A stretch of 64,000 nucleotides of DNA, from the NCBI RefSeq assembly GCF_051903065.1, contig NZ_CP178438.1. The stretch is one strand, 5' to 3'. The notes beneath the pieces were generated by a model that had not been told where the DNA came from, searched no databases, and was given only the letters and a program-made list of their open reading frames with translations. Numbering within the stretch: the stretch's first letter is position 1; each line of letters opens with the position of its first letter. Of the stretch, positions 1,735 to 42,564 are shown piece by piece. Source of the stretch: Escherichia coli. Its GTDB lineage: Bacteria; Pseudomonadota; Gammaproteobacteria; Enterobacterales; Enterobacteriaceae. The position numbers were made by a program, and so were the translations under genes.

Positions 1735-2142
1735 ATGGCGTTACGAAATAAAGCGTTCCATCAGTTACGACAGCTTTTTCAGCAGCACACATCTCGCTGG
1801 CAGCATGAGCTACCTGGCCTGACCAAACCGCAGTACGCGGTGATGCGCGCCATTGCTGATAAGCCTGGTATCGAACAGGTTGCGCTGATGGAAGCAGCAG
1901 TCAGCACCAAAGCAACGCTGGCAGAAATGCTGGCAAGAATGGAGAATCGTGGCTTAGTCAGACGTGATCATGATGCCGCTGACAAGCGGCGTCGCTTTGT
2001 CTGGCTGACTGCCGAAGGAGAAAAGATACTTGCTGCGGCGATACCGATTGGTGACAGCGTGGATGAGGAATTTTTGGGGCGTTTGAGTGCAGAAGAGCAG
2101 GAGCTGTTTGTGCAGCTGGTGCGCAAGATGATGAACACATAG
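1735..2142 (+). CDS. MarR/SlyA-family transcriptional regulator
   Basis: 135-aa ORF, winged-helix MarR-like sequence; divergent from the ubiX-like gene. Confidence 0.8.
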   Translation: MALRNKAFHQLRQLFQQHTSRWQHELPGLTKPQYAVMRAIADKPGIEQVALMEAAVSTKATLAEMLARMENRGLVRRDHDAADKRRRFVWLTAEGEKILAAAIPIGDSVDEEFLGRLSAEEQELFVQLVRKMMNT

Positions 2143-2215
2143 GATGCAAATTGCCGGGTAGGACGCTGACGTGTCTTATCCAGGCGACAAAAACACAAGC
2201 TTCCCAAACAAAAGA

Positions 2216-2248
2216 AAAAGGCCAGCCTCGCTTGAGACTGGCCTTTCT
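2216..2248. terminator. Hairpin between convergent MarR regulator and rpoS; probable bidirectional intrinsic terminator
   Basis: AAAAAGGCCAGCCTCGCTTGAGACTGGCCTTTCT: imperfect 9-10 bp stem flanked by an A-run and a T-rich tract. Confidence 0.5.
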
Positions 2249-2261
2249 GACAGATGCTTAC

Positions 2262-3254
2262 TTACTCGCGGAACAGCGCTTCGATATTCAGCCCCTGCGT
2301 TTGCAGGATTTCGCGCAAACGGCGCAGGCCTTCAACCTGAATCTGGCGAACACGTTCACGGGTGAGGCCAATTTCACGACCTACATCTTCCAGTGTTGCC
2401 GCTTCGTACCCCAGCAAACCGAATCGACGTGCCAGTACTTCACGCTGTTTGGCGTTCAGCTCGAACAGCCATTTGACGATGCTCTGCTTCATATCGTCAT
2501 CTTGCGTGGTATCTTCCGGACCGTTCTCTTTTTCATCGGCCAGGATGTCCAGCAACGCTTTTTCGGAATCACCACCCAGCGGGGTGTCTACCGAGGTAAT
2601 GCGCTCGTTAAGACGAAGCATACGGCTGACGTCATCAACTGGCTTATCCAGTTGCTCTGCGATCTCTTCCGCACTTGGTTCATGGTCCAGCTTATGGGAC
2701 AACTCACGTGCGGTTCGCAGGTAAACGTTCAGCTCCTTTACGATGTGAATCGGCAAACGAATAGTACGGGTTTGGTTCATAATCGCCCGTTCAATCGTCT
2801 GGCGAATCCACCAGGTTGCGTATGTTGAGAAGCGGAAACCACGTTCCGGGTCAAACTTCTCTACCGCGCGGATCAGCCCCAGGTTGCCCTCTTCGATAAG
2901 GTCCAGCAACGCCAGACCACGATTGCCATAACGGCGGGCAATTTTTACCACCAGACGCAAGTTACTCTCGATCATCCGGCGGCGAGAGGCGACATCTCCA
3001 CGCAGTGCGCGACGCGCAAAATAAACTTCTTCTTCGGCCGTTAACAGTGGTGAATAACCAATCTCACCAAGGTAAAGCTGAGTCGCGTCCAACACACGCT
3101 GTGTGGCTCCCTGCGATAACAGTTCCTCTTCGGCCAAATCGTTATCACTGGGTTCCTCTTCTACTAAGGCCTTTTCGTCAAAAACCTCAACTCCGTTCTC
3201 ATCAAATTCCGCATCTTCATTTAAATCATGAACTTTCAGCGTATTCTGACTCAT
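2262..3254 (-). CDS. rpoS: RNA polymerase sigma factor RpoS (sigma-38)
   Basis: Protein [21 protein letters not shown]... through ...[11 protein letters not shown] track extends 12 codons upstream; start placed at the internal ATG (3252-3254). Confidence 0.97.
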
Positions 3255-3316
3255 AAGGTGGCTCCTACCCGTGATCCCTTGACGGAACATTCAAGCAAAA
3301 GCCTGGTTCCGCCGAT

Positions 3317-13402: not shown

Positions 13403-13858
13403 CGGTTTATCCCCGCTGGCGCGGGGAACACGTGTGGCACTCTGCGTCTGGTATTAAATCATTCGGTTTATCCCCGCTGGCGCGGGGAACACCCGCCACG
13501 CCGTGCGCATCAACAGATATACGCAGGTTTATCCCCGCTGGCGCGGGGAACACAAACCGAAACACACGATCAATCCGAATATGAGCGGTTTATCCCCGCT
13601 GGCGCGGGGAACACCGAAAAGGCACCGTGCCGGTGACGTTCAATTCCGGTTTATCCCCGCTGGCGCGGGGAACACCGTTTTCACTCACTGGCAATCTCCG
13701 AGCAGAGCGGTTTATCCCCGCTGGCGCGGGGAACACGTGCGAATACCGTGTAAAAAATTAGTGTTATTCGGTTTATCCCCGCTGGCGCGGGGAACACTCA
13801 CGGTAGCGCCACTGCGCGTCGGTGACGGGCGGTTTATCCCCGCTGGCGCGGGGAACAC
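13403..13858 (-). CRISPR. CRISPR array 1 (type I-E): 8 repeats, 7 spacers of 32 nt
   Basis: 29-bp repeat CGGTTTATCCCCGCTGGCGCGGGGAACAC at 13403, 13464, 13525, 13586, 13647, 13708, 13769, 13830 (61-bp period). Third repeat starts with A. AT-rich leader on the high-coordinate side, so transcription is on the minus strand. Confidence 0.97.
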
Positions 13859-13954: not shown

Positions 13955-15164
<1,210 letters not shown>

Positions 15165-15168
<4 letters not shown>

Positions 15169-15815
15169 ACCTCTGCTCCGGGTTTGATCAGCATCAGACC
15201 ACAGCCGAACGCGCGGCTTTTGCCATACCCCTGACTGAGACGTTGCAGAAATAACCCGGGATCGGTGACCGTAAGCATCCCCGTATAATCCACGCTACTG
15301 AACTGGATCAGTTGCCGGGAGTTTTCCCGCCGCAGTTGCTGTTGTCGGTAGGCATCAACCGAGGTATCCAGCAGTGTAAAACCGCTTCTCTCCCCCTGCG
15401 CTGCCAGCCAGTCCAGCGCCGCCTGTTGTTGATGCAACCAGACATCACGCCCTTCCGCCTGTCCCCTCACCTGCCGTTTCGCCTCCATCAGCAGATCGTG
15501 GCGCTTGCCCGCTTTACAAATTGTGGGATTCGCCCGCAGGTTGAAACAAAGGGATTGTCCGGTACGCAGCTCCGGAGCAAATGACCGGCATTCGATAGTG
15601 AAAGTTTCACTTTCCGCCGGGCGTTCCTGCGAGAGGACAAAAAAGCGAAACGCACCCTGAAGTTCCTCCCGACGATAAAGAAATTGCCTTTCTTTGCCGC
15701 CAGGGAAGAGATCCCACAGCCACTGATGCATCACATATTCACCGCGATCCACCAGATGCAGCAACTGCGCAGGCAAAAGCTGAGCGGTATGTAAGGTTAT
15801 TCTTGAGAGGTACAT
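15165..15815 (-). CDS. cas6e: Cas6e (CasE/Cse3) crRNA endoribonuclease
   Basis: Position between cas5 and cas1; C-terminal G-rich loop SRAFGCGLM typical of Cas6e. Start placed at internal ATG (MYLSRITLH...); track ORF extends 46 codons upstream into cas5. Confidence 0.8.
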
Positions 15816-16543
15816 GGTTCCTCCTTGCTGAGCCACGGCCCCTGATTGACGGTGCGTTCCCCAAACAGCCACTGCTGGCGATTTAAAGGAACATCCCGGC
15901 GGCGTAATATTTTGCTCACGACCAGGCCGTCGTGCTCCCCTTCCCACCAGCATTCATCCTGAAGTTTCGGGAGTGAGACTTTCAGGTCGTGGAAATGATC
16001 CTGATACTGTTGGTATGCGTTACGTAAAACATCAGACGCGTTGCCTTCGAGCAGTAACGGCGCAAGTGGTAATGCCAGCGGATGACTTTTTCGCCCCAGA
16101 TAAAGAGGAAAAACTGGATGGCGTAAACCGCCCTGCAACTGTTCGAGGCTGTAAGGCGCATCGGCTGTTGTTGCCACCGCCACCATCCACCAGGCGTCGG
16201 TGTAGTAGTCGCGCCGGGAGATAATCGCGCTCAGAAGATCAGAGTCGCTCAACTCTTCGCGACGGCTGAAATAACGCGCTTTGCGCACCTCTTTTGGCAT
16301 CTGGATCGTGTGATAATCCCGTGCCCAGCGCGGGTTACGGCTGGCGCAAACCACCAGTGAATAGTGGCGATTAAACGCGTTTAAGCGTTCGGTATCATCA
16401 CGCCGAATCCCTACCCCGGCAGCCAGCAGACCCAGCAATGCTGAGCGCGAAGGCAGTTCATGGGTATGACGCACTTCGCCGGGGGCATCGACGCCCCAGG
16501 ATGCCATTGGCCCATGAAGCTGAAAAATCAGATATTGGCTCAT
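15797..16543 (-). CDS. cas5: Cas5e (CasD) Cascade subunit
   Basis: 248-aa ORF MSQYLIFQLHGPMASWG..., Cas5 N-terminal pattern; operon position. Confidence 0.85.
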   Translation of the reverse strand: MSQYLIFQLHGPMASWGVDAPGEVRHTHELPSRSALLGLLAAGVGIRRDDTERLNAFNRHYSLVVCASRNPRWARDYHTIQMPKEVRKARYFSRREELSDSDLLSAIISRRDYYTDAWWMVAVATTADAPYSLEQLQGGLRHPVFPLYLGRKSHPLALPLAPLLLEGNASDVLRNAYQQYQDHFHDLKVSLPKLQDECWWEGEHDGLVVSKILRRRDVPLNRQQWLFGERTVNQGPWLSKEEPCTSQE

Positions 16544-16553
16544 AAGCCGCCCC

Positions 16554-17609
16554 TTACGCGCAGATAAAGTCCAGTACGTCCTTCATGCTTCCCTGTTTGT
16601 TCATCACGTCAAAACTTGCGCATTCAGTCTTCTGTTCGTAGACCGTATTCATGTTTTCGCGAAGCGTTGTAATACGCTGCACCGCCACATCTAACTGACG
16701 GGTACCATTAATGGGTTCATAGAAAGCCGCCGCCAGAGAACGCGGTTGATCAGTGCCTTTTTCCGCCAGCGCCCAGGAGGCGTAGGCACGGCTGGCAAAG
16801 CTATTTTGTTTACCGGTTGGGGAAACTTTAAGCGCGGCTTCCGTAAAAGCGCGTATGGTCTGATTAGCTAACGCTTCGTCACCGCCGAGGTTTTCTACCA
16901 GCAGATCTTTATCAATGCAGATATAGGTGTAGAAAAGTGCTGAACCGAATCCGGTTTCTCCGAGATGCCCGGCACCGGCATCTTCAGAGGCCTGGCGCAA
17001 ATCATCAACGGCGGTGAAAAAATCATCTTCGACAATCGTTTCACTGACACCAAACGCATGCGCGACCTGGCAGGCGGCTTCAACATTAAACTCAGGTTTA
17101 TTCGCCAGCATACGACCAAACATAGCGATATCTACCGCTATACGGTCTTTACGTAACAACGCGAGATCTTCCTCTTTTGGCGCGCGCTTTTCTTCTGCCA
17201 GTTGATGGGCCAGCGCTTTTACGGCGTCAAATTCTGCCGGGCTGATATGAACTAATTGTTCAGTTTCGGCGTTAGTGAGCGGATCTTTTGGTTTTTTGTC
17301 GTTTTTAGCTTTCCCAAGATAATCTGCAATTTTTGCCGCCCATTCGATGGCTTTTTTCTCTTCGATTCCTTTCTCAATCAGGATAGTTGCCGCCTCACGC
17401 GCAATTCGCCCACTGCGAATACCAATATGGCCCGCCAGTGCCTGTTCAAAAAGTGCAGAAGTGCGCCACGCACGTTTCAGACTTTGTGAGGAAACGCGCA
17501 GACGCGTTGCACCACCCAGTACCACAGTTTTTGGCGCACCAGTATCATCACGGTTAAGGTTGGCAGCAGGGTAAGCGGTTAACAAATGAAGCTGAATAAA
17601 TGTTGTCAT
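16554..17609 (-). CDS. cas7: Cas7e (CasC) Cascade backbone subunit
   Basis: 351-aa ORF MTTFIQLHLLTAYPAANLNRDDTGAPK..., Cas7e N-terminal signature. Confidence 0.92.
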   Translation of the reverse strand: MTTFIQLHLLTAYPAANLNRDDTGAPKTVVLGGATRLRVSSQSLKRAWRTSALFEQALAGHIGIRSGRIAREAATILIEKGIEEKKAIEWAAKIADYLGKAKNDKKPKDPLTNAETEQLVHISPAEFDAVKALAHQLAEEKRAPKEEDLALLRKDRIAVDIAMFGRMLANKPEFNVEAACQVAHAFGVSETIVEDDFFTAVDDLRQASEDAGAGHLGETGFGSALFYTYICIDKDLLVENLGGDEALANQTIRAFTEAALKVSPTGKQNSFASRAYASWALAEKGTDQPRSLAAAFYEPINGTRQLDVAVQRITTLRENMNTVYEQKTECASFDVMNKQGSMKDVLDFICA

Positions 17610-17620
17610 GAGATAGTCCT

Positions 17621-18160
17621 TTATTGATTTTGTTCGTTATCGGCGTCGCCAGCCTGGTAATATTCCAGCGCCCAGCGGATACGGATAAATTCGGTTGGCC
17701 GCTGCTGGCGGCGGTGATGATTGAGCAGGTCGTCGCTCTCCTGACACCAGCGGAAAATATCGTCTGCCAAAGAGATAAGATTGACGGAACCGTTTAATAA
17801 TTTGACTGCGCGTCGTAACTGGCGCAGTAATTCATCCGGCGTTTTTACTGCCGACAGGCAAGTAAAACGCCCCTCTGACATTACCGCCGCCAGCTGTGCG
17901 GCAAAAGGCTGCCGTTCATCAATGGCTTTAACATTGGCGGCAACGGCGGCGACCAGTGCCAGTGCGGTAAAACGCCACTCTTGTGCTTCAATTTTCCACA
18001 AAGTGTGGGTCTGCATCAGCAGAGAACGAAACCCTTCTGACAAGCAAACATCATTAACCGTTGTGCTACGCCGCAGACTGGCACGATTGCCGCGTTTAGC
18101 CTGCAACTCTTCGTGCCATTTACGCAGCGTGGCTTTGTGCCCGTCTTTTACAATACTCAT
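17621..18160 (-). CDS. cse2: Cse2 (CasB/Cas11e) Cascade small subunit
   Basis: 179-aa ORF between cse1 and cas7. Confidence 0.85.
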   Translation of the reverse strand: MSIVKDGHKATLRKWHEELQAKRGNRASLRRSTTVNDVCLSEGFRSLLMQTHTLWKIEAQEWRFTALALVAAVAANVKAIDERQPFAAQLAAVMSEGRFTCLSAVKTPDELLRQLRRAVKLLNGSVNLISLADDIFRWCQESDDLLNHHRRQQRPTEFIRIRWALEYYQAGDADNEQNQ

Positions 18161-19725
18161 TCAGCAGCCTCCTGCTTTTTCTCCCTGGCGGCTTTAGCAC
18201 TTTGCTTCTCCGCCGATGTTGTAAAATATTTTTTGCGCGCGGTCATGACGCGTTTTAAATCAACGGGCTCATAAGGATTGGTGAATACACGCTCGTCAAA
18301 ATCCTGACGCGAGAATAACCAAATCTCCTTATTCCATTTGCTGAGTAATTCATCCGCATCCTGACCTTCTTCAATTTGGCGCACTAACCTCAGGAAGCGA
18401 TGCTGAGTTTTGTTCCAGAAGTCGATATCCACAAAACTGAAATCACCCCGTGCACCTTTTGGATCGGAGAACCATGCTTCTTTCAATGCACTCCGTAACA
18501 GACTTAGAATGCGTGAAGCCGTTTGCGCAGCCAGCCGCAGTTTCGGTATCTGGCCTTCTTTTTTATTGAGCAGCAGCGGGAAACGGTGTTCGTACCAACA
18601 GCGGGCTTTCATGTTGTCGAAATCATAGCCAAATCCCCATAGGCCTACTTTTGCCTGCTTGAGACTGCTGGCATTAAAGAGTTTCACCACCAGAGCGGGA
18701 AGTTCCGTATTGTTTTCTGACTTACCCGTTTCGATAAGGCCTAACCAGTCGCGCCAAATTAAACCGCCTGGTTGTGGTTTAACTGAGTAAAACTCGCCAC
18801 CCTCTTTAAGTGGTACACGGTAAGGCGTTAATGGATGCTGCCACATGGCATAATTCGCACCGTAATTTTTGGTCGTCATCAGGCTCAGAAGCGCGTCGTC
18901 CTGCTCACCGCAAATATCGCAGTTGCCGACTGTCGTGGTATTAAAATCAATACGAATACGCCGCGGCATTCCCCAGTACGCCTGGAGTTTATTGACCTGA
19001 TCATCGGTTACCACCGCACCGGCCAGTTCGCTGGTACGCGTCGGGCCAAGCCAGGGGAAAACCAGATCGTCAAATTTTTTGGGTAGCGGTAAGTCGGCTT
19101 CATCCTGCGGCATCACGTTGAGCCACAGTTTGCGCCACAAGGGGGCTTGTTGATTGCCCTGATACTCCTGCAATTCAATCAGAGTCGTCATCGGCCCACC
19201 GCCGCGTAAACCGGTTCGGTAGCCTTTGCCGCCTGACGGTGCATTTAACTGTAGGGAGAACAGAGCTAACGCGGAACAATGAGGGCATACGTGTTCAGTC
19301 ACGCCACGCTTAATAAAGTGGTCTTTATTAAACTTCGTTGTTTGAGCGCCGGGAATCTCAGGCAGTAATGAAGCAACCTGAACTTTATCTCCCGTGAGCG
19401 CCTCGAAATCCTGCATAAATGAAGGGGAATCTGGCCCAAACTGGAAAGCATGTTCTAAAGACAGCAATGCTTCCCGTAGCTTTTCGGCTTCCAGTCCGTC
19501 TTGCCAGATATCATCCCAACGACCATGATTTTTGGGCGCGAAACTGGTTTGTAGTAGCCCCAGTAAAAACTGCCATGCTGCTCCCTGGAGATCTGCTCGT
19601 GGCGCAGCGATATCGACAACATTTTCATCAGCCAGATCGACTGGCGCCAGTTTGCCTGTCGTTCCGTCTTTAAAACGAACGGGCAACCACGGGGTTGTCA
19701 GAAGTGAAAACGAGTTCATACGCAT
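18157..19725 (-). CDS. cse1: Cse1 (CasA/Cas8e) Cascade large subunit
   Basis: 522-aa ORF at head of the Cascade operon; alternative start 2 codons in (MNSFSLL). Confidence 0.88.
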   Translation of the reverse strand: MRMNSFSLLTTPWLPVRFKDGTTGKLAPVDLADENVVDIAAPRADLQGAAWQFLLGLLQTSFAPKNHGRWDDIWQDGLEAEKLREALLSLEHAFQFGPDSPSFMQDFEALTGDKVQVASLLPEIPGAQTTKFNKDHFIKRGVTEHVCPHCSALALFSLQLNAPSGGKGYRTGLRGGGPMTTLIELQEYQGNQQAPLWRKLWLNVMPQDEADLPLPKKFDDLVFPWLGPTRTSELAGAVVTDDQVNKLQAYWGMPRRIRIDFNTTTVGNCDICGEQDDALLSLMTTKNYGANYAMWQHPLTPYRVPLKEGGEFYSVKPQPGGLIWRDWLGLIETGKSENNTELPALVVKLFNASSLKQAKVGLWGFGYDFDNMKARCWYEHRFPLLLNKKEGQIPKLRLAAQTASRILSLLRSALKEAWFSDPKGARGDFSFVDIDFWNKTQHRFLRLVRQIEEGQDADELLSKWNKEIWLFSRQDFDERVFTNPYEPVDLKRVMTARKKYFTTSAEKQSAKAAREKKQEAAE

Positions 19726-20115
19726 CCTCTCGTAGAAAAGACCATCCCTGGTCGGTTGTCCATCACCATATTTTCAGATTTAGTTGGAGACTTAATCTGA
19801 GTCGGATAAAAGAAAAGACGTTGAATGTGATACGAAAATCGAACTTAGTTTGTCGTTTTGAAAGCAGACTTAGCACAAGTTGAAGCAAAAAAATCGACAA
19901 CATCGTAGTCCTCTTCACCGCAGCTTTTCACCGGTCACGAAAATACGCCTTGTAACGGTGTGACTCAACTCCGGATCCGGACATTATTTAAAATCTTTGT
20001 TTCTCATTAACTCATAGCAATTACCCATCTATCATAATCACAATAGCATTGATAAAATAAATCCATTCCCTGATTCTAGGGATTAACCAAGTTAGTGAGA
20101 TACAAAAATTGGTTC

Positions 20116-20144
20116 CTGTTCCCCGCGTCAGCGGGGATAAGCCC
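20116..20144 (+). repeat. Solitary degenerate CRISPR-repeat-like element in the cas3-cse1 intergenic region
   Basis: cTGTTCCCCGCGtCAGCGGGGATAAgCCc is 24/29 identical to the crRNA-sense repeat GAGTTCCCCGCGCCAGCGGGGATAAACCG. Stem CCCCGC/GCGGGG is intact. crRNA sense is on the plus strand, opposite to the cas genes and to both arrays. Confidence 0.75.
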
Positions 20145-20166
20145 TGGCGTCATCCGACGCCAGGGC
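20141..20166 (-). terminator. Strong hairpin 4 nt downstream of cas3 stop (possible cas3 terminator)
   Basis: GCCCTGGCGTC-atcc-GACGCCAGGGC, 11-bp stem; on the cas3 sense strand it is followed by the repeat-derived hairpin and a TTTTTG run. Confidence 0.5.
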
Positions 20167-20169
20167 ATC

Positions 20170-22869
20170 TCAATCAACCTTGCCAATCAATCCTTCCGTA
20201 GCCGAATACCCGCAGCTTTCGTCATCGGTGACTAAAATCACGTTTGCCATCTCCGGATCTTGCCGTTGTTCAATGCACCACTGCCTGAACGCTTCCCCTT
20301 CCAGTAAAGAAAATTCATCCCGATGTTTTTTCCACCAGCTTCGACGCACTCTGGCAACGCTCATTTCCCATGCGTGAGCACCGCTGGCATAAGGCTTCAC
20401 CACACCGTCAATACAGGTAGCCAGCCACAGGGAAACAGACTCTTCAGCCAGACGTGTCGACAGCTTTTCCGGGAGGTAATCGTTGATATTGGCGGCATAG
20501 CCGGGCCTGAAGTTCAGCATAAACTTTTTAGCCATTGCGCGATCGCAGTAATATTTGCCCACTTGCTCCTGCTCGCTGCGGGCAAATCCTTCCGGCATTA
20601 CCACGTCCTCACCGTAGACGGATTCAATAAGAAGCCGGGCTGCGTGTGGCATCTGAATAGCGCCTTGCTCACGCAATACTCGCTGCGTCAGCCAGATTCG
20701 CCCATGATCGGGGTAGACATATGCGCTGTTACGCATCGCACTACCAAACCATTCGTCACCCGGAGAGTCGTCCCAGACGGGGGCCAGAATCAGCAATTCA
20801 GGAGGGGAACGCTCGTCTTTTCCATCACGTTTTAACTGACCATTAATATCACGAATATGCCGTTGTAATCGCCCCGCTCGCTGGATCAGCAAATCAATGG
20901 GGGCCAGGTCGGAGATCATTTCGTCCAGGTCAATATCCACACTTTGCTCAATTACTTGTGTACAAACAATGACTTGAGATGATCTTTTTAAACTACAATT
21001 TTTACCAAAGCGTGCCAGCGTTTCCGTTTCAATTCGCTGGCGATCGCTAAAAGCAAAGCGGCTATGAAAAAGTGAAAGGCTGGAAGCAGGAATGACGCCG
21101 CGGGCAAGTAACTGACGATAAACCTTAATAGCGTCATCGACAGAATTCCGGATCCAGGCGATGCATTTCCCCTGACTTACCGCTGATTCGATACGCGCAA
21201 TACATTCTTGTTCGCTATGAAGCCAACCCACGCTCACGCTACGCTCAACGTCTTTGCGCGTCGCTACCCGGTGCGAATGCACATCGGATTTCGTGACATG
21301 CGTCAGCCAGGGGTAATCATCCTTTTCTAGGAACGGAGCTTCTTGCTGGCCCTCTGTGCCACGCGCAAAGGCGGCGACAAGTTTGTCGCGCTGCTGTTGA
21401 GATAACGTAGCAGAAAGCAAAATGACGCTGTTTCCGCCACGCACCTGTCGCTCAATCAACCCTTCAAGAATGTACGACATGTAAGCGTCACAGGCGTGGA
21501 TCTCATCAGCCAGCAGGATTTTGTTACTCAACCCCAGAAGCCGCAGATTATTATGTTTAAACGGCATCACTGCCATCATCGCCTGATCCAGCGTGCCGAC
21601 GCCAATTTCAGCCAGTAAAGCCTTCTTGTTACTGTCGGCAAACCAGGCTGCACATCCTTGACTGAACGCTTGTTCATCCGGTTCTTCTGACCCGACTAAA
21701 TCACCGGACCAGAGTGATTCATTAAAGCGTTCCATTAATGTACGGGCGCTGTGTGCCAGCACCAGGCTGGGGCGGGATTCTGGCGAAAAGAAAGCAAGCC
21801 AGGTTTTGACCAGCCGATCGTACATGGCATTGGCCGTTGCCATTGTTGGCAGGCCAAAAAACAAACCCTGAGCTTTATTCTCAGCCATCAACCTGTGCGC
21901 CAGGATAAGCGCCGCTTCTGTTTTACCTGCGCCAGTCACATCTTCCAGAATAAATAACTGTGGCCCTGGCTGGCTGATATCCAGATCCAGTACCTTTTGC
22001 TGTAATGGTGTCGGGTGCTCAATAAAAGGAAACAGCGTATTAATTCCGGTGAAAGGTGCGGTTTCTGCTTTTGGAGGAAAGACGGTTAAGGCGTTTTGAG
22101 CCTGAACTAAAGTTTTCTGCCAGTAATCTTTAATATTCATTGTCTGTGCGACGCGTGGAAAAAATCGCGTTGACGAACCCGTCCAGTCTGCGAGTACGAC
22201 TGTTGCAGAGATATACCAGGAAAGTTGTTTTAAAAGTTCAACGCCCTCGTCATCATCCCAGAATGTGGGAATCTCTATGAGCGGAAACAGTGACTTGATT
22301 TCAAGGAGAAAATCTCGTGCGGCAGCTTTGTCTTCAGGCAGGAAATTATCCAGTTCATCAATACGGTCAGGGGGCCGACCATGATGCCCGGTAGTCATGG
22401 GCATCCACATCGCTATTACACGTTTAAGTTTGCGAGTAGAGAGTGAAGAGGCAGGAAGCAATTCTTCGCATTCACTTAAATAATGATGCCACAACCAGTA
22501 GCCCAGCGTTGAATGAGAGATCTTTTCGTAATTCTTTCTTGCGCCTTCCGGAACCTTGAGTTGTGGGTGCAGGTAAAGTTGCTGAAATGAGCGGGCAAAT
22601 TTTCCAATATCGTGCCAGCACAACAACCAGGCGAAAAATTGAGCCGCCTGTTCCTTGTCAGAAATCCCTAATTGACGAAAATAATCAGCCAGCCCGAAGC
22701 AATTTCTTTTAACCATTAAATAGCCCATCGCGGCCACATCCAGCGAATGCCAGCAAAGAAGGTGATAGTCGTCACCCCCTTCTTTCTCGTCGCGTCGGGT
22801 TTTTCCCCAGAAATCAAAGAAAGTCACAATATTTTTATCCTTCAGTAAACTTAAAGGATATTTACGCAT
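20170..22869 (-). CDS. cas3: Cas3 HD-nuclease/helicase
   Basis: 899-aa ORF with N-terminal HD-like region and SF2 helicase motifs (DVTGAGKTEA, DEIH). Confidence 0.93.
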   Translation of the reverse strand: MRKYPLSLLKDKNIVTFFDFWGKTRRDEKEGGDDYHLLCWHSLDVAAMGYLMVKRNCFGLADYFRQLGISDKEQAAQFFAWLLCWHDIGKFARSFQQLYLHPQLKVPEGARKNYEKISHSTLGYWLWHHYLSECEELLPASSLSTRKLKRVIAMWMPMTTGHHGRPPDRIDELDNFLPEDKAAARDFLLEIKSLFPLIEIPTFWDDDEGVELLKQLSWYISATVVLADWTGSSTRFFPRVAQTMNIKDYWQKTLVQAQNALTVFPPKAETAPFTGINTLFPFIEHPTPLQQKVLDLDISQPGPQLFILEDVTGAGKTEAALILAHRLMAENKAQGLFFGLPTMATANAMYDRLVKTWLAFFSPESRPSLVLAHSARTLMERFNESLWSGDLVGSEEPDEQAFSQGCAAWFADSNKKALLAEIGVGTLDQAMMAVMPFKHNNLRLLGLSNKILLADEIHACDAYMSYILEGLIERQVRGGNSVILLSATLSQQQRDKLVAAFARGTEGQQEAPFLEKDDYPWLTHVTKSDVHSHRVATRKDVERSVSVGWLHSEQECIARIESAVSQGKCIAWIRNSVDDAIKVYRQLLARGVIPASSLSLFHSRFAFSDRQRIETETLARFGKNCSLKRSSQVIVCTQVIEQSVDIDLDEMISDLAPIDLLIQRAGRLQRHIRDINGQLKRDGKDERSPPELLILAPVWDDSPGDEWFGSAMRNSAYVYPDHGRIWLTQRVLREQGAIQMPHAARLLIESVYGEDVVMPEGFARSEQEQVGKYYCDRAMAKKFMLNFRPGYAANINDYLPEKLSTRLAEESVSLWLATCIDGVVKPYASGAHAWEMSVARVRRSWWKKHRDEFSLLEGEAFRQWCIEQRQDPEMANVILVTDDESCGYSATEGLIGKVD

Positions 22870-23061
22870 ATTTTAAAAATTATCTGTGATATATATCAGC
22901 CAATAAAACATTTATATTGTGAATAAATTTATGATTTTCATTTGAAATTCATAATAATAAATAGAGACAATATATTCACATAAAAAATATAAATTTAAAA
23001 AAGGGTGCAGGAGACCAAACCATCACAATTCAATACGCGGGGTTTTACCCCCGCGTGGTGG

Positions 23062-37794: not shown

Positions 37795-39273
37795 ATGTCG
37801 AAGAAATACATCATAGGGATTGATGGCGGAAGTCAGAGCACAAAAGTGGTGATGTACGATCTGGAAGGTAACGTGGTTTGCGAAGGCAAAGGTTTATTGC
37901 AGCCGATGCACACGCCAGATGCCGATACCGCAGAACATCCTGACGACGATTTATGGGCATCATTATGTTTTGCCGGTCACGATTTGATGAGTCAGTTTGC
38001 CGGGAATAAAGAAGATATTGTCGGTATTGGTCTGGGATCCATCCGTTGCTGCCGTGCGTTATTGAAAGCCGATGGCACGCCAGCTGCGCCATTGATTAGC
38101 TGGCAGGATGCACGCGTAACGCGTCCCTACGAACACACTAATCCTGACGTGGCATATGTCACCTCTTTTTCGGGTTATCTAACGCATCGCTTAACCGGCG
38201 AGTTTAAAGACAATATCGCCAACTATTTTGGTCAGTGGCCAGTGGATTATAAGAGCTGGGCATGGAGCGAAGATGCTGCGGTAATGGAGAAGTTTAATAT
38301 CCCTCGTCATATGCTGTTTGATGTGCAAATGCCTGGCACCGTCCTCGGACATATCACACCACAAGCCGCACTGGCGACACATTTCCCGGCAGGGCTGCCG
38401 GTTGTTTGTACCACCAGTGATAAACCGGTAGAAGCTCTGGGAGCCGGATTACTGGATGATGAAACGGCGGTGATTTCTCTTGGCACCTACATCGCGCTGA
38501 TGATGAACGGTAAAGCACTGCCGAAAGATCCGGTGGCGTACTGGCCGATTATGTCTTCTATACCGGAAACATTGCTGTATGAAGGGTACGGTATCCGTAA
38601 AGGCATGTGGACGGTGAGCTGGCTACGCGACATGTTAGGCGAGTCGTTAATTCAGGATGCCAAAGCACAGGATCTTTCACCGGAAGATTTGCTCAACAAA
38701 AAAGCTTCTTGTGTGCCGCCTGGCTGTAATGGTCTGATGACGGTGCTGGACTGGCTGACCAACCCGTGGGAACCCTACAAACGTGGGATTATGATCGGCT
38801 TTGATTCCAGCATGGATTACACATGGATATATCGTTCGATACTGGAAAGCGTGGCGCTGACGCTGAAGAACAATTACGACAATATGTGTAATGAAATGAA
38901 TCACTTTGCAAAGCATGTGATCATTACTGGCGGCGGTTCGAACAGCGATCTATTTATGCAAATTTTTGCCGACGTGTTCAACCTTCCGGCACGCCGTAAC
39001 GCCATTAACGGTTGTGCAAGTCTGGGGGCAGCGATCAATACGGCGGTAGGTCTGGGGCTATACCCGGATTACGCAACGGCTGTCGACAAAATGGTTCGCG
39101 TGAAAGATATCTTTATGCCTGTTGAGAGCAATGCCAAACGCTACGACGCGATGAATAAAGGTATTTTCAAAGCCCTAACCAAACATACTGATGTGATCCT
39201 GAAAAAATCGTATGAAGTGATGCATGGGGAATTGGGGAATGCGGATTCGATCCAGAGCTGGTCGAATGCGTAA
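37795..39273 (+). CDS. ygcE: FGGY-family carbohydrate kinase
   Basis: 492-aa ORF MSKKYIIGIDGGSQSTKVVMYD..., FGGY kinase N-terminus. Confidence 0.88.
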   Translation: MSKKYIIGIDGGSQSTKVVMYDLEGNVVCEGKGLLQPMHTPDADTAEHPDDDLWASLCFAGHDLMSQFAGNKEDIVGIGLGSIRCCRALLKADGTPAAPLISWQDARVTRPYEHTNPDVAYVTSFSGYLTHRLTGEFKDNIANYFGQWPVDYKSWAWSEDAAVMEKFNIPRHMLFDVQMPGTVLGHITPQAALATHFPAGLPVVCTTSDKPVEALGAGLLDDETAVISLGTYIALMMNGKALPKDPVAYWPIMSSIPETLLYEGYGIRKGMWTVSWLRDMLGESLIQDAKAQDLSPEDLLNKKASCVPPGCNGLMTVLDWLTNPWEPYKRGIMIGFDSSMDYTWIYRSILESVALTLKNNYDNMCNEMNHFAKHVIITGGGSNSDLFMQIFADVFNLPARRNAINGCASLGAAINTAVGLGLYPDYATAVDKMVRVKDIFMPVESNAKRYDAMNKGIFKALTKHTDVILKKSYEVMHGELGNADSIQSWSNA

Positions 39274-39319
39274 GTGAGGAAGACCGGGCGGGAAACTGCC
39301 CGGCCTGAACATACCTGAA

Positions 39320-39458
39320 TGGTTATCCCCGCTGGCGCGGGGAACATAAGTTCGACAACTTAAAAAATGATAACAAGTCCGGTTTATCCCCGCTGATGCA
39401 GGGAACATAATAAAAACTTTAACTAGTTCGGTTTATCCCTGTTTTTACAAGGAATATT
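39320..39458 (-). CRISPR. Decayed CRISPR remnant: three degenerate type I-E repeats with irregular spacing
   Basis: tGGTT-ATCCCCGCTGGCGCGGGGAACAT (39320-39347), CGGTTTATCCCCGCTGATGCAGGGAACAT (39380-39408), CGGTTTATCCCTGTTTTTACAAGGAATAT (39430-39458); intervening segments 32 and 21 nt. Confidence 0.8.
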
Positions 39459-39519
39459 AACTACACTCGATGTCTTTAGAATAAAAGACAATACGAATCG
39501 CACTTTATCAATTTTCACT

Positions 39520-40576
39520 GGCTTTGTTGAATAAATCGAACTTTTGCTGAGTTGAAGGATCAGATCACGTATCTTCCCGACAACGCAGACCGTTCCGTGG
39601 CAAAGCAAAAGTTCAAAATCACCAACTGGCCCACCTACAATAAAGCCCTCATCAACCGTGGCTCCATAACTTTCTGGCTGGATGATGAAGCTATTCAGGC
39701 CTGGTATGAGTCAGCAACACCTTCTTCACGAGGCAGACCTCAGCGCTATTCTGACCTTGCCATCACGACTGTGCTGGTCATTAAACGCGTATTCAGGCTG
39801 ACCCTGCGCGCTGCGCAGGGCTTTATTGATTCCATTTTTTCTCTGATGAACGTTCCGCTACGCTGCCCGGATTACAGCTGTGTCAGCAGGCGGGCAAAGT
39901 CGGTTAATGTCAGTTTCAAAACGCCCACCCGGGGTGAAATCGCACACCTGGTAATTGATTCCACCGGGCTGAAGGTCTTCGGTGAAGGCGAGTGGAAAGT
40001 CAAAAAGCATGGCCAGGAACGCCGCCGTATCTGGCGTAAGCTGCATCTCGCCGTTGACAGTAAAACACATGAAATCATCTGCGCTGACCTGTCGCTGAAC
40101 AACGTTACGGACTCAGAGGCCTTCCCCGGGTTAATCCGGCAAACCCACCGGAAAATCAGGTCAGCCGCCGCCGATGGCGCTTACGATACCCGGCTATGTC
40201 ACGATGAACTGCGGCGTAAGAAAATCAGCGCGCTTATCCCTCCCCGAAAAGGTGCGGGTTACTGGCCCGGTGAATATGCAGACCGTAACCGTGCAGTGGC
40301 TAATCAGCGAATGACCGGGAGTAATGCGCGGTGGAAATGGACAACAGATTACAACCGTCGCTCGATAGCGGAAACGGCGATGTACCGGGTAAAACAGCTG
40401 TTCGGGGGTTCACTGACACTGCGTGACTACGATGGTCAGGTTGCAGAGGCTATGGCCCTGGTACGAGCGCTGAACAAAATGACGAAAGCAGGTATGCCTG
40501 AAAGCGTGCGTATTGCCTGAAAACACAACCCGCTACGGGGGAGACTTACCCGAAATCTGATTTATTCAACAAAGCC
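39520..40576 (+). mobile_element. IS903-family (IS5 superfamily) insertion sequence, 1057 bp, intact, with 9-bp target site duplication
   Basis: 18-bp terminal inverted repeats GGCTTTGTTGAATAAATC at 39520-39537 and (reverse complement) 40559-40576. Direct repeat ATTTTCACT at 39511-39519 and 40577-40585. One transposase ORF spans the element. Confidence 0.93.
39597..40520 (+). CDS. IS903-family DDE transposase
   Basis: Open frame from 39552 (TTG) in the track; likely start GTG 39597, giving ~307 aa. Start assignment is uncertain. Confidence 0.85.
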   Translation: MAKQKFKITNWPTYNKALINRGSITFWLDDEAIQAWYESATPSSRGRPQRYSDLAITTVLVIKRVFRLTLRAAQGFIDSIFSLMNVPLRCPDYSCVSRRAKSVNVSFKTPTRGEIAHLVIDSTGLKVFGEGEWKVKKHGQERRRIWRKLHLAVDSKTHEIICADLSLNNVTDSEAFPGLIRQTHRKIRSAAADGAYDTRLCHDELRRKKISALIPPRKGAGYWPGEYADRNRAVANQRMTGSNARWKWTTDYNRRSIAETAMYRVKQLFGGSLTLRDYDGQVAEAMALVRALNKMTKAGMPESVRIA

Positions 40577-40976
40577 ATTTTCACTTAAAGTATGAACAGG
40601 ATATCTTTATTCATAAGAACTATTCATCAACAGCGTATAGAGGCGGTTATGTAAAACCACTCATTAGCCTCAAAACAAAGACAAATTTCCAGATTTATTA
40701 CTTAATCAATGAATAACAAGCTTAAAAAATACACTGTTATTCTAAAGAAAAAATTAACAGGCATTAATTAATATTAAAAAAATAATATATTAAAATTTCT
40801 TAACGGTTTAAGGATTATACAAATAACACTTTGATTAAATTTGATTTTTTGTATCGATAATTGTGAACTTATCTGGCATGGGGAACTATTTTGAACATGA
40901 GGTGTTACGTGGATATGTTGCTTATTACAAGTACAGCTAATATAAAAACTTGAGAAAGAGATAACGGGTTATATGG

Positions 40977-41554
40977 TGGTTTATCCCCGCTGGCGCGGGG
41001 AACTCGTACTGACGGATAAAAATAATACCTTTTGCGGCGGTTTATCCCCGCTGGCGCGGGGAACTCGTCAACGTTTTTCATGTGGGCATGAGTTGGGGCG
41101 GTTTATCCCCGCTGGCGCGGGGAACTCTATTCGGCCTCGTGCTGGTCGTGACAAAATACCGGTTTATCCCCGCTAGCGCGGGGAACTCTGGCGATATTGC
41201 CTACCGCAACAAAGAAAATACGGTTTATCCCCGCTAGCGCGGGGAACTCATCCACGAATCCAGTGCAAATGAGTTTGTTGGCGGTTTATCCCCGCTAGCG
41301 CGGGGAACTCATTGTGACTACCACCGATAACCCCGCAACCACCGGTTTATCCCCGCTAGCGCGGGGAACTCCTGCATTCGCCTGCGGTTATCAGATCGCT
41401 AAACGGTTTATCCCCGCTAGCGCGGGGAACTCGCTGCCATTACTTCCCGCCAGCGTTGCTCTGGCGGTTTATCCCCGCTAGCGCGGGGAACTCGCAGAGA
41501 ATCGTTCGATTGCCCCTACATCTTCCGGTTTATCCCCGCTGGCGCGGGGAACTC
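40977..41554 (-). CRISPR. CRISPR array 2 (type I-E): 10 repeats, 9 spacers of 32 nt
   Basis: 29-bp repeat CGGTTTATCCCCGCTGGCGCGGGGAACTC at 40977, 41038, 41099, 41160, 41221, 41282, 41343, 41404, 41465, 41526. Repeats 4-9 have CTAGCGC instead of CTGGCGC; repeat 1 starts with T. Leader on the high-coordinate side. Confidence 0.97.
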
Positions 41555-41700
41555 TCTAAACATAACCTATTATTAATTAATGATTTTTTAAGCCAGTCAC
41601 AATCTACCAACTTTACAGTATCACACAAACAACACATCCATTATGTTAAAGAGCGCTTAATCCATTGATTAAAAAGGTAAATATTTAAAATAACTCTATA
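41555..41700 (-). promoter_or_regulatory. CRISPR array 2 leader (AT-rich)
   Basis: AT-rich; contains CAATCTACCAAC about 45-58 nt from the first repeat as in leader 1, and a second similar copy AAAATCTACCAAAC further out. Confidence 0.65.
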
Positions 41701-41892
41701 CAAACTAAAATCTACCAAACTTTACCGCAATAATTTTCACTCCAACGAAAAATTAACGCCACAGAATTTGTAGAGAATGATAATGATTAGTCCAGGATGG
41801 GCAAAATGGAGGTTTTTCAGAGGCGACAAAGAATATAAATGAGTAGAAGTCTTTACAGGTTCCACCCATTTATAACGCTTATAAAAGTTTAA

Positions 41893-42564
41893 TCAGGCAA
41901 TATTTAGATATTTATGTGTTTGCATCGACAAACGCCAATTACGCGCAATGCAGATTTCAATGCACAATCGTGTGGCATCATCCTTTTGGCTAATCGGCTG
42001 CAGTGCAATGACTCGCGGTTTATCATCGGTCAGCGTTGCCAATAGTTCATCCAGTGCTTCAATATCGCGTACGCGCCCCACTGGATGCTTGATTTCGTTG
42101 GCTCGCTCCAGTGCCTGTGACAACACTTCATAGCCGCCGCGCATGTTCAGCTTTGGCGATACGGTAACCCAGGTATTCGGTGTGCAGCGTACCTCATGAG
42201 TACCACTGGTTTCGATCTGGCAGCTAAAACCGTTCTTTTCGAGCAGATCAGTCAGTGGTAGCAAATCATGAATGCAAGGCTCACCACCCGTAATCACCAC
42301 ATGCCGCGCGGTGTATCCCTGGCGACTAATGACAGCCAACAAGTCTTCACTGCTCGCCGCCCCCCACTTATCACTCTCTTTGGTCTTCGCCAGAATGCTG
42401 AAAAGGGAGACTTCCCGATCCTCAAGCTTTTCCCAGGTGTGTTTGGTGTCGCACCAGGCACAGCCAACCGGGCATCCCTGTAAACGAATAAAAATGGCGG
42501 GGACGCCGGTAAAGTAACCCTCACCTTGCAGGGTCTGGAACATCTCGTTAATCGGGTACTGCAT
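41893..42564 (-). CDS. queE: 7-carboxy-7-deazaguanine synthase (radical SAM)
   Basis: 223-aa ORF MQYPINEMFQTLQGEGYFTGVPAIFIRLQGCPVGCAWCDTK... Confidence 0.95.
   Translation of the reverse strand: MQYPINEMFQTLQGEGYFTGVPAIFIRLQGCPVGCAWCDTKHTWEKLEDREVSLFSILAKTKESDKWGAASSEDLLAVISRQGYTARHVVITGGEPCIHDLLPLTDLLEKNGFSCQIETSGTHEVRCTPNTWVTVSPKLNMRGGYEVLSQALERANEIKHPVGRVRDIEALDELLATLTDDKPRVIALQPISQKDDATRLCIEICIARNWRLSMQTHKYLNIA

Follow-up and report, generated by a model that had tools for sequence, protein, structure and literature searches.

A CRISPR array in which a run of identical repeat variants is bounded at the leader end by a canonical repeat raises the question of how that canonical repeat came to be there. 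The array considered here lies in a 64,000-nt stretch of Escherichia coli DNA (contig NZ_CP178438.1 of assembly GCF_051903065.1), the whole of which is referred to as the window. The original prediction, made from the letters alone, had described an internal block of loop-variant repeats and offered two explanations: a transient variant of the leader-proximal repeat that later reverted, or recombination between arrays. A comparable arrangement has been described in a preprint (bioRxiv 10.1101/2022.05.19.492656) as Pattern 2, in which a repeat mutation is kept through at least two duplications and is followed towards the leader by an apparent reversal. Pattern 2 was found in 219/1095 trackable prokaryote arrays (reported as about 18%), and reversal, internal insertion and recombination were offered as its causes. 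The window array, which reads GGG-AAAAAA-G, with six A repeats and then a G leader-proximal repeat, conforms to this pattern.

Architecture of the CRISPR2.3 array and its surroundings

The array is composed of ten 29-nt repeats and nine 32-nt spacers at an exact 61-bp period (Table 1). Repeats 4-9 read CGGTTTATCCCCGCTAGCGCGGGGAACTC, with A at repeat position 16 on the + strand. Repeats 2, 3 and 10 read GCTGGCGC, with G at this position, and repeat 1 is the same except for an initial T. The description of the repeats given in the original prediction was therefore accurate, as was its placement of the leader at the repeat 10 end, where a conserved AT-rich leader was found on the queE side. No repeat match was obtained in any shuffled copy of the window, and the chance that six variants are contiguous among ten positions is 5/210 = 0.024 by our own arithmetic. 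The repeat is the E. coli type-2 (type I-E) 29-nt repeat CGGTTTATCCCCGCTGGCGCGGGGAACTC, and a 60-mer of the leader is common to 4087 genomes. The array is situated between ygcE and queE, with a CRISPR2.2 remnant on the ygcE side; homologous RefSeq loci annotate a CRISPR between these two genes, and QueE was identified in the window. This is the canonical E. coli type I-E CRISPR2.3 array of the CRISPR-II locus, in the nomenclature of Díez-Villaseñor and Almendros (Mojica group; PMC3737337, PMC3903273). Because the leader lies to the right of the array (from 41555), transcription runs leftwards, with the crRNA on the - strand, and the repeat nearest the leader is repeat 10. A scan of positions 40800-41800 against Rfam returned no family at the gathering score, such a scan being uninformative for a 29-nt repeat.

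Table 1. Positions of the CRISPR2.3 array, its subdivisions and neighbouring elements in the window.
Feature	Position	Strand	Remarks
Array 1 (CRISPR2.1)	13403..13858	-	8 repeats, ending AACAC, all G16; adjoins cas operon
Complete type I-E cas operon (cas2, cas1, cas6e, cas5e, cas7e, cse2, cse1, cas3)	13955..22869	-	
ygcE	37795-39273		
Left part of tract shared with strain 48, including CRISPR2.2 remnant	39283..39519	.	No difference
Degenerate CRISPR2.2 remnant	39319-39467		Repeats end AACAT
IS903B insertion, 1057 bp	39520..40576	+	9-bp target duplication ATTTTCACT at 39511-39519 and 40577-40585
400 bp directly left of array	40577..40976	.	0 differences to strain 48, 2 to PapRG-06-5
CRISPR2.3 array (array 2), CRISPR-II locus (ygcE-queE)	40977..41554	-	10 repeats, ending AACTC, and 9 spacers
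Repeats 1-3, canonical G16, with oldest spacers S1 and S2	40977..41127	-	
Repeats 4-9, all A16	41160..41493	-	crRNA C14 to U; tetraloop GCCA to GCUA
Repeat 10, leader-proximal, canonical G16	41526..41554	-	First site departing from A-type sister arrays; putative recombination junction
Leader and intergenic region to queE	41555..41892	-	First 100 bp same in all relatives
queE/ygcF	41893-42564	-	

In crRNA sense the variant alters the third base of the tetraloop, and its assignment to the hairpin loop in the original prediction was upheld by folding, which gave the same result for both forms. The repeat RNA is predicted to form a 7-bp stem, a tetraloop and an 8-nt 3' tail, which is the Cas6e substrate form, and GCCA, GCUA and GUCA loops all gave one predicted structure with an MFE of -15.1 kcal/mol. 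Cas6e processing of the A-loop repeats is probably retained, and the loop change is functionally neutral as far as can be told. No relevant study came out of a literature search on Cas6e and loop mutations. Acquisition falls 3-fold at most when bases between the inverted repeats are substituted (PMC5039180), and the growth of the A block by duplication fits this experimental tolerance. The array confirms for wild E. coli that acquisition goes on despite a substitution in the tetraloop.

A comparison of the spacers with phages and plasmids, proposed in the original prediction, yielded a phage match for one spacer and no plasmid match. Spacer S2 (41067-41098) matched 32/32 positions, beside an ATG PAM, in a gene for an ImmA/IrrE-family metallo-endopeptidase that is carried by Escherichia phage vB_EcoM-705R4 and by prophages of about 600 E. 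coli genomes, many of them ST131. The other eight spacers had no match in the phage or plasmid collections, and the proportion of spacers with a mobile-element match beside an AWG PAM was 1/9.

The eight proteins of the cas operon exceed the NCBIfam cut-offs, and the operon would serve both arrays. It is not the K-12 variant, the score obtained with the K-12 Cse1 equivalog model (cse1, 18157-19725) being 101 bits against a cut-off of 576 bits and the score obtained with the K-12 Cas3 model 431 bits against 569. A solitary repeat-like sequence with a 17A-like loop, GCTTATCCCCGCTGACGCGGGGAACAG, was noted in the cas3-cse1 intergenic region (20116-20142, - strand), in the opposite orientation to both arrays. 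In Array 1, the repeat at 13525 has A instead of C as its first base, which is the PAM-derived position and suggests an acquisition that used a non-canonical PAM. The IS903B copy, 100% identical to plasmid copies, separates the CRISPR2.2 remnant from the CRISPR2.3 array. The three closest genomes do not have it, and its insertion is thus very recent; it plays no part in the history of the repeat variant.

Related arrays, flank haplotypes and the position of the junction

A search with the nine spacers identified five complete E. coli genomes that share some of them. The window, ECNB21-M121 (China), 23CRST027 and 23CRST031 (both Ecuador) belong to the same clone, and each has the A block closed by a G repeat (the G cap), which was seen only in this clone. 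About 5 SNPs over 38 kb separate the window from ECNB21-M121. The latter has two additional internal spacers and the Ecuador strains are without S2, from which it follows that the ancestor of the clone had at least eight A repeats and that its members differ by deletions only. As a separate observation, ECNB21-M121 carries IS421 next to cas3 (locus 1818-2930), and positions 23040-23051 of the window are the corresponding empty site.

Three arrays outside the clone, referred to as sister arrays, were found in strain 48 (deer, Switzerland), PapRG-06-5 (baboon, Gambia) and the metagenome contig Ga0129317_1013888. Spacers S1, S3, S4 and S5 are common to the window and all three, S2 and S6 are present also in strain 48, and the newer spacers of the sister arrays differ from those of the window. 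All three have A in each repeat after S3, the leader-proximal repeat included. The A block comprises 12 repeats in strain 48, and lineage-specific spacers are always located on the leader side of the shared ones, as polarised addition predicts. Since A extends up to the leader in the sister arrays, it was the leader-proximal repeat that mutated, after S3 had been gained, and each later acquisition copied the variant; the G cap came afterwards as a derived feature peculiar to the window clone. The comparison among related strains that the original prediction had proposed thus established that the variant was once leader-proximal and spread by repeat duplication; the random scatter that the prediction had also considered was not encountered, the same contiguous block recurring in every related array. 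In PapRG-06-5 (locus 1960-3275), iap directly adjoins hok and cysH, and both the cas-E operon and CRISPR2.1 are missing. This strain keeps a 12-repeat CRISPR2.3 array, 10 repeats of which are A-type, and with the loss of the cas-E operon the array is now frozen.

The flanks were compared with those of the same relatives. Between the window and strain 48 there is no difference from 637 bp left of the array (39283, the IS element being ignored) to leader position +100, a tract of about 1.2 kb that runs through the shared part of the array. Outside this tract the two sequences diverge by 3.0% further left and by 1.76% further right. The nearest difference on the left is at 39282, and divergence on the right starts at 41655 and 41661, which are the first SNPs specific to the window clone (G and T in the clone). 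E. coli genomes vary in the 400 bp directly left of the array, and identity there therefore reflects common descent. The first 100 bp of the leader contain zero informative sites, and a run of 100 bp without a difference has P = 0.17 at 1.76% divergence; there is hence no sign that shared ancestry reaches beyond repeat 10 into the leader. The shared tract and the diverged right flank together place the junction between position 16 of repeat 10 and leader +100. This interval measures 129 bp, and within 15 bp of it no further mutation is needed for the G cap.

The G cap coincides with this haplotype junction. The A-capped relatives, including the metagenome contig, have common (native) right-flank alleles, and among the window clone and the A-capped relatives only the G-capped clone has a foreign right flank. 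Strain ET350 has both flank haplotypes of the A-capped relatives and different spacers. The right flank of the window clone is unique among 5426 genomes, the next best matches being 99.0% and 98.4%, and on the far left its flank is similar to a third haplotype, seen in Combat11I9; this additional mosaicism indicates that the locus saw several exchanges. Examined as a possible chimera, the locus has an array shared by descent, flanks of discordant ancestry and a junction at or in the array. Neither a donor nor a pre-exchange recipient was found by searching 5426 genomes with the spacers and the right flank and metagenome contigs with S9. Outside the clone, S7-S9 were found in none of the genomes or metagenome contigs, and the right flank of the clone was found with no other array.

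The history proposed for the array is as follows. A C-to-T change on the crRNA-sense strand (G-to-A on the + strand) would have struck tetraloop position 3 in the leader-proximal repeat at a time when the array held S1-S3. With Cas1-Cas2 copying the leader-proximal repeat at each acquisition, the A would have passed to each later repeat; as this repeat is the one duplicated and loop substitutions are tolerated, all later repeats would be expected to carry A. Homologous recombination with a different E. coli lineage may later have joined the array to a foreign right flank. The exchange would have ended inside the leader-proximal repeat, the last homology before the strain-specific spacers, restoring the G16 of the partner. 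No spacer appears to have been gained after the exchange, the members of the clone differing by internal spacer deletions only.

We favour this reading of the G cap, as the product of homologous recombination that ended in the leader-proximal repeat, with a probability of roughly 0.6. Two points are our interpretation: that the junction falls inside the repeat and not within the first 100 bp of the leader, and which way the transfer went. If the junction is in the repeat, the G needs no extra event and the repeat provides a natural stopping point for strand exchange. A junction in the leader would require, in addition, an independent A-to-G reversion at position 16 on a short branch. Homology between position 16 and spacer S9 amounts to 15 bp, so that extension of a heteroduplex to the homology boundary followed by repair or segregation would be needed, and not a classical crossover. 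Precedent exists in E. coli for an exchange inside an array by which a leader and a CRISPR unit became attached to a resident one (PMC3903273). This reading is limited by the 129-bp width of the interval, by the negative searches for a donor and a recipient, by the short homology and by the mosaic far-left flank, and in an analysis of spacer order E. coli arrays were explained without recombination (PMC4524480). The flank haplotypes thus favour the second alternative of the original prediction, with the locus of another strain as the partner and not an exchange between the two arrays of the genome itself; Array 1 is an unlikely donor, as its repeats end AACAC and repeat 10 ends AACTC.

Loop variants across E. 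coli and other origins of the G cap

The frequency of loop variants in the species was determined by searching 5426 complete genomes with single-variant 30-nt queries. The exact 16A repeat was present in 39/5426 genomes, in 123 copies. Blocks of 16A repeats were found in 15 genomes, which fall into five groups with unrelated spacers in the A part. All of them have G in the repeats on the trailer side, and in all but the window clone the A run extends to the leader. The variant is also present as a single repeat in at least five other unrelated contexts, including one CRISPR2.1 array, and the recurrence of 16A among unrelated spacers indicates that the change itself is recurrent. The 17A repeat was found in 231 genomes (972 copies), making it about six times more widespread than 16A, and it is present in a published consensus (PMC3737337). 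The 15C repeat was absent from the census with its single-variant 30-nt query. The 17A blocks of CRISPR2.1 are like the window block in that a neighbouring loop G-to-A change forms polarised blocks up to the leader; they differ in that both of the 17A arrays inspected reach the leader uncapped, whereas the 16A block of the window is G-capped.

Several individual arrays in the census deserve mention. The array of O78 strain 3 contains a tandem duplicate spacer (S38 twice) and a leader-proximal repeat with both 16A and 19A, the latter mutation affecting the stem of the very copy from which future repeats would be templated. In O121 RM8352 and O178 2012C-4431 a single 16A repeat stands second from the leader, below a G leader-proximal repeat, and NCTC9064 has the same S69-[16A]-S70 unit followed by seven newer G repeats. 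The single 16A of these three strains may date from an acquisition event, as a change in just one of the two daughter repeats. In CRISPR2.1 of YSP8-1 and 504239, the trailer repeats have AACAC with G17 and all leader-side repeats AACTC with 17A, a two-position switch that looks like an array chimera of the kind described by Almendros et al.

A true back-mutation, in which the leader-proximal repeat would have changed from A to G after acquisition of S9 and independently of the nearby junction, is the most credible of the other explanations of the G cap, and we consider it unlikely. Position 16 does change recurrently, 16A occurring in at least nine spacer-unrelated contexts; reversal is among the explanations offered for Pattern 2 (bioRxiv 10.1101/2022.05.19.492656), and the junction has been mapped no more finely than 129 bp. 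However, a back-mutation would require a specific transition on a short branch and, in any case, a junction within 100 bp. The recurrent change runs from G to A, and the frequency of 16A and 17A together with the absence of 15C looks like a directional C-to-T change in the loop and not a two-way process. A reverted repeat was seen in none of the other 16A blocks, and A-type arrays went on acquiring, up to 12 spacers, which gives no sign of selection against A. The reversion that formed part of the first alternative of the original prediction is accordingly less likely than recombination, while its transient variant repeat is retained.

Intragenomic gene conversion, by which repeat 10 would have been corrected from a G repeat on the same chromosome (repeats 1-3, Array 1 or the CRISPR2.2 remnant), is somewhat less probable again. 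Templates of the G type are available at distances of 400 bp to 28 kb, and repeats 2 and 3 match repeat 10 exactly. Yet nothing would direct conversion to the leader-proximal copy alone when seven to nine A repeats were present, or make its position agree with the flank junction. The remnant repeats, ending AACAT, differ from repeat 10, as do those of Array 1. Patchwork of G and A was observed in 0/15 block-bearing genomes, no array besides those of the window clone having a G inside or capping a 16A block, and repeat-to-repeat conversion is therefore rare.

The two remaining explanations are weaker. Were the leader-proximal repeat always G, an internal repeat could have mutated to A and spacers could have been inserted there repeatedly, mid-array insertion being one of the possible causes of Pattern 2 (bioRxiv 10.1101/2022.05.19.492656). 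Such ectopic integration is highly improbable here: the leader-proximal repeat is A in the three sister arrays, the lineage-specific spacers are always leader-side of the shared ones, and none of the sister arrays has S9, which would predate S4-S6. The leader and IHF, moreover, strongly direct type I-E integration. An error at position 16 of the six repeats, whether of sequencing, as raised in the original prediction, or of assembly, is excluded, as the pattern is found in three independent complete genomes from China and Ecuador (ECNB21-M121, 23CRST027 and 23CRST031) and the A repeats are found also in strain 48, PapRG-06-5 and the metagenome contig.

The origin of the A change itself was considered separately. 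A quasi-palindrome template switch, in which G16-to-A perfects CGCTGGCG into CGCTAGCG, was rejected, the reciprocal 15C being absent and the unpredicted 17A abundant; a C-to-T change in the loop would fit 16A and 17A better. A single origin of 16A spread by recombination is also unlikely, given the unrelated spacers of the A parts and near-leader haplotypes that differ from position +87. For ET350 and the window family, which share both flanks, a single origin is compatible with the data. A broader and doubtful proposal is that the two loop cytosines of the type I-E repeat form a directional C-to-T hot spot tied to spacer integration. The repeat strands would be briefly single-stranded in the gapped integration intermediate, where a hairpin with an exposed loop could form. 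Once fixed in the copy on the leader side, a change would mark all later acquisitions as a heritable barcode, and exchanges ending at the leader-repeat boundary might occasionally reset that barcode.

Relation to known systems and significance

Both the system and the pattern of a mutation followed by an apparent reversal were already known, and the window array is a well-resolved ordinary example. Its A block is what duplication of a mutated leader-proximal repeat is expected to leave behind. The reasoning of the original prediction was sound, but loop-variant blocks are common in E. coli, and the pattern is less unusual than it had held. In the Pattern 2 preprint the cause was left open, whereas here the sister arrays and flanks argue for a specific one.

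The repeat, the 61-bp unit, the leader and the hairpin are the same as in the K-12 type I-E system (Yosef 2012; Goren 2016, PMC5039180), in which mutations of the leader-proximal repeat are likewise copied into new repeats. Unlike the K-12 experiments, the present evidence comes from natural history, and the cas operon differs from the K-12 variant. The proposed exchange is similar to that of Almendros et al. 2014 (PMC3903273), in which a leader and at least one CRISPR unit were joined to a resident array within the array. In that study, CRISPR and strain phylogenies were discordant in E. coli, and the CRISPR-II locus was far more clonal than CRISPR-I. The two cases differ in extent, CRISPR-I and whole cas-E modules having been involved there and a tract of about 1.2 kb with no cas genes here.

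The general understanding of CRISPR function is unchanged by the window array. What it adds is confirmation from wild E. coli that each new repeat is copied from the leader-proximal one, and a demonstration that a single-base variant of the repeat, read together with flank SNPs, can place a recombination junction at an array's leader end. Methods based on spacer order are blind to an exchange at this end, and one such study judged recombination unnecessary (PMC4524480). If the hot-spot proposal were true, loop variants together with flank haplotypes would provide a general clock and recombination marker for the otherwise silent arrays of E. coli.
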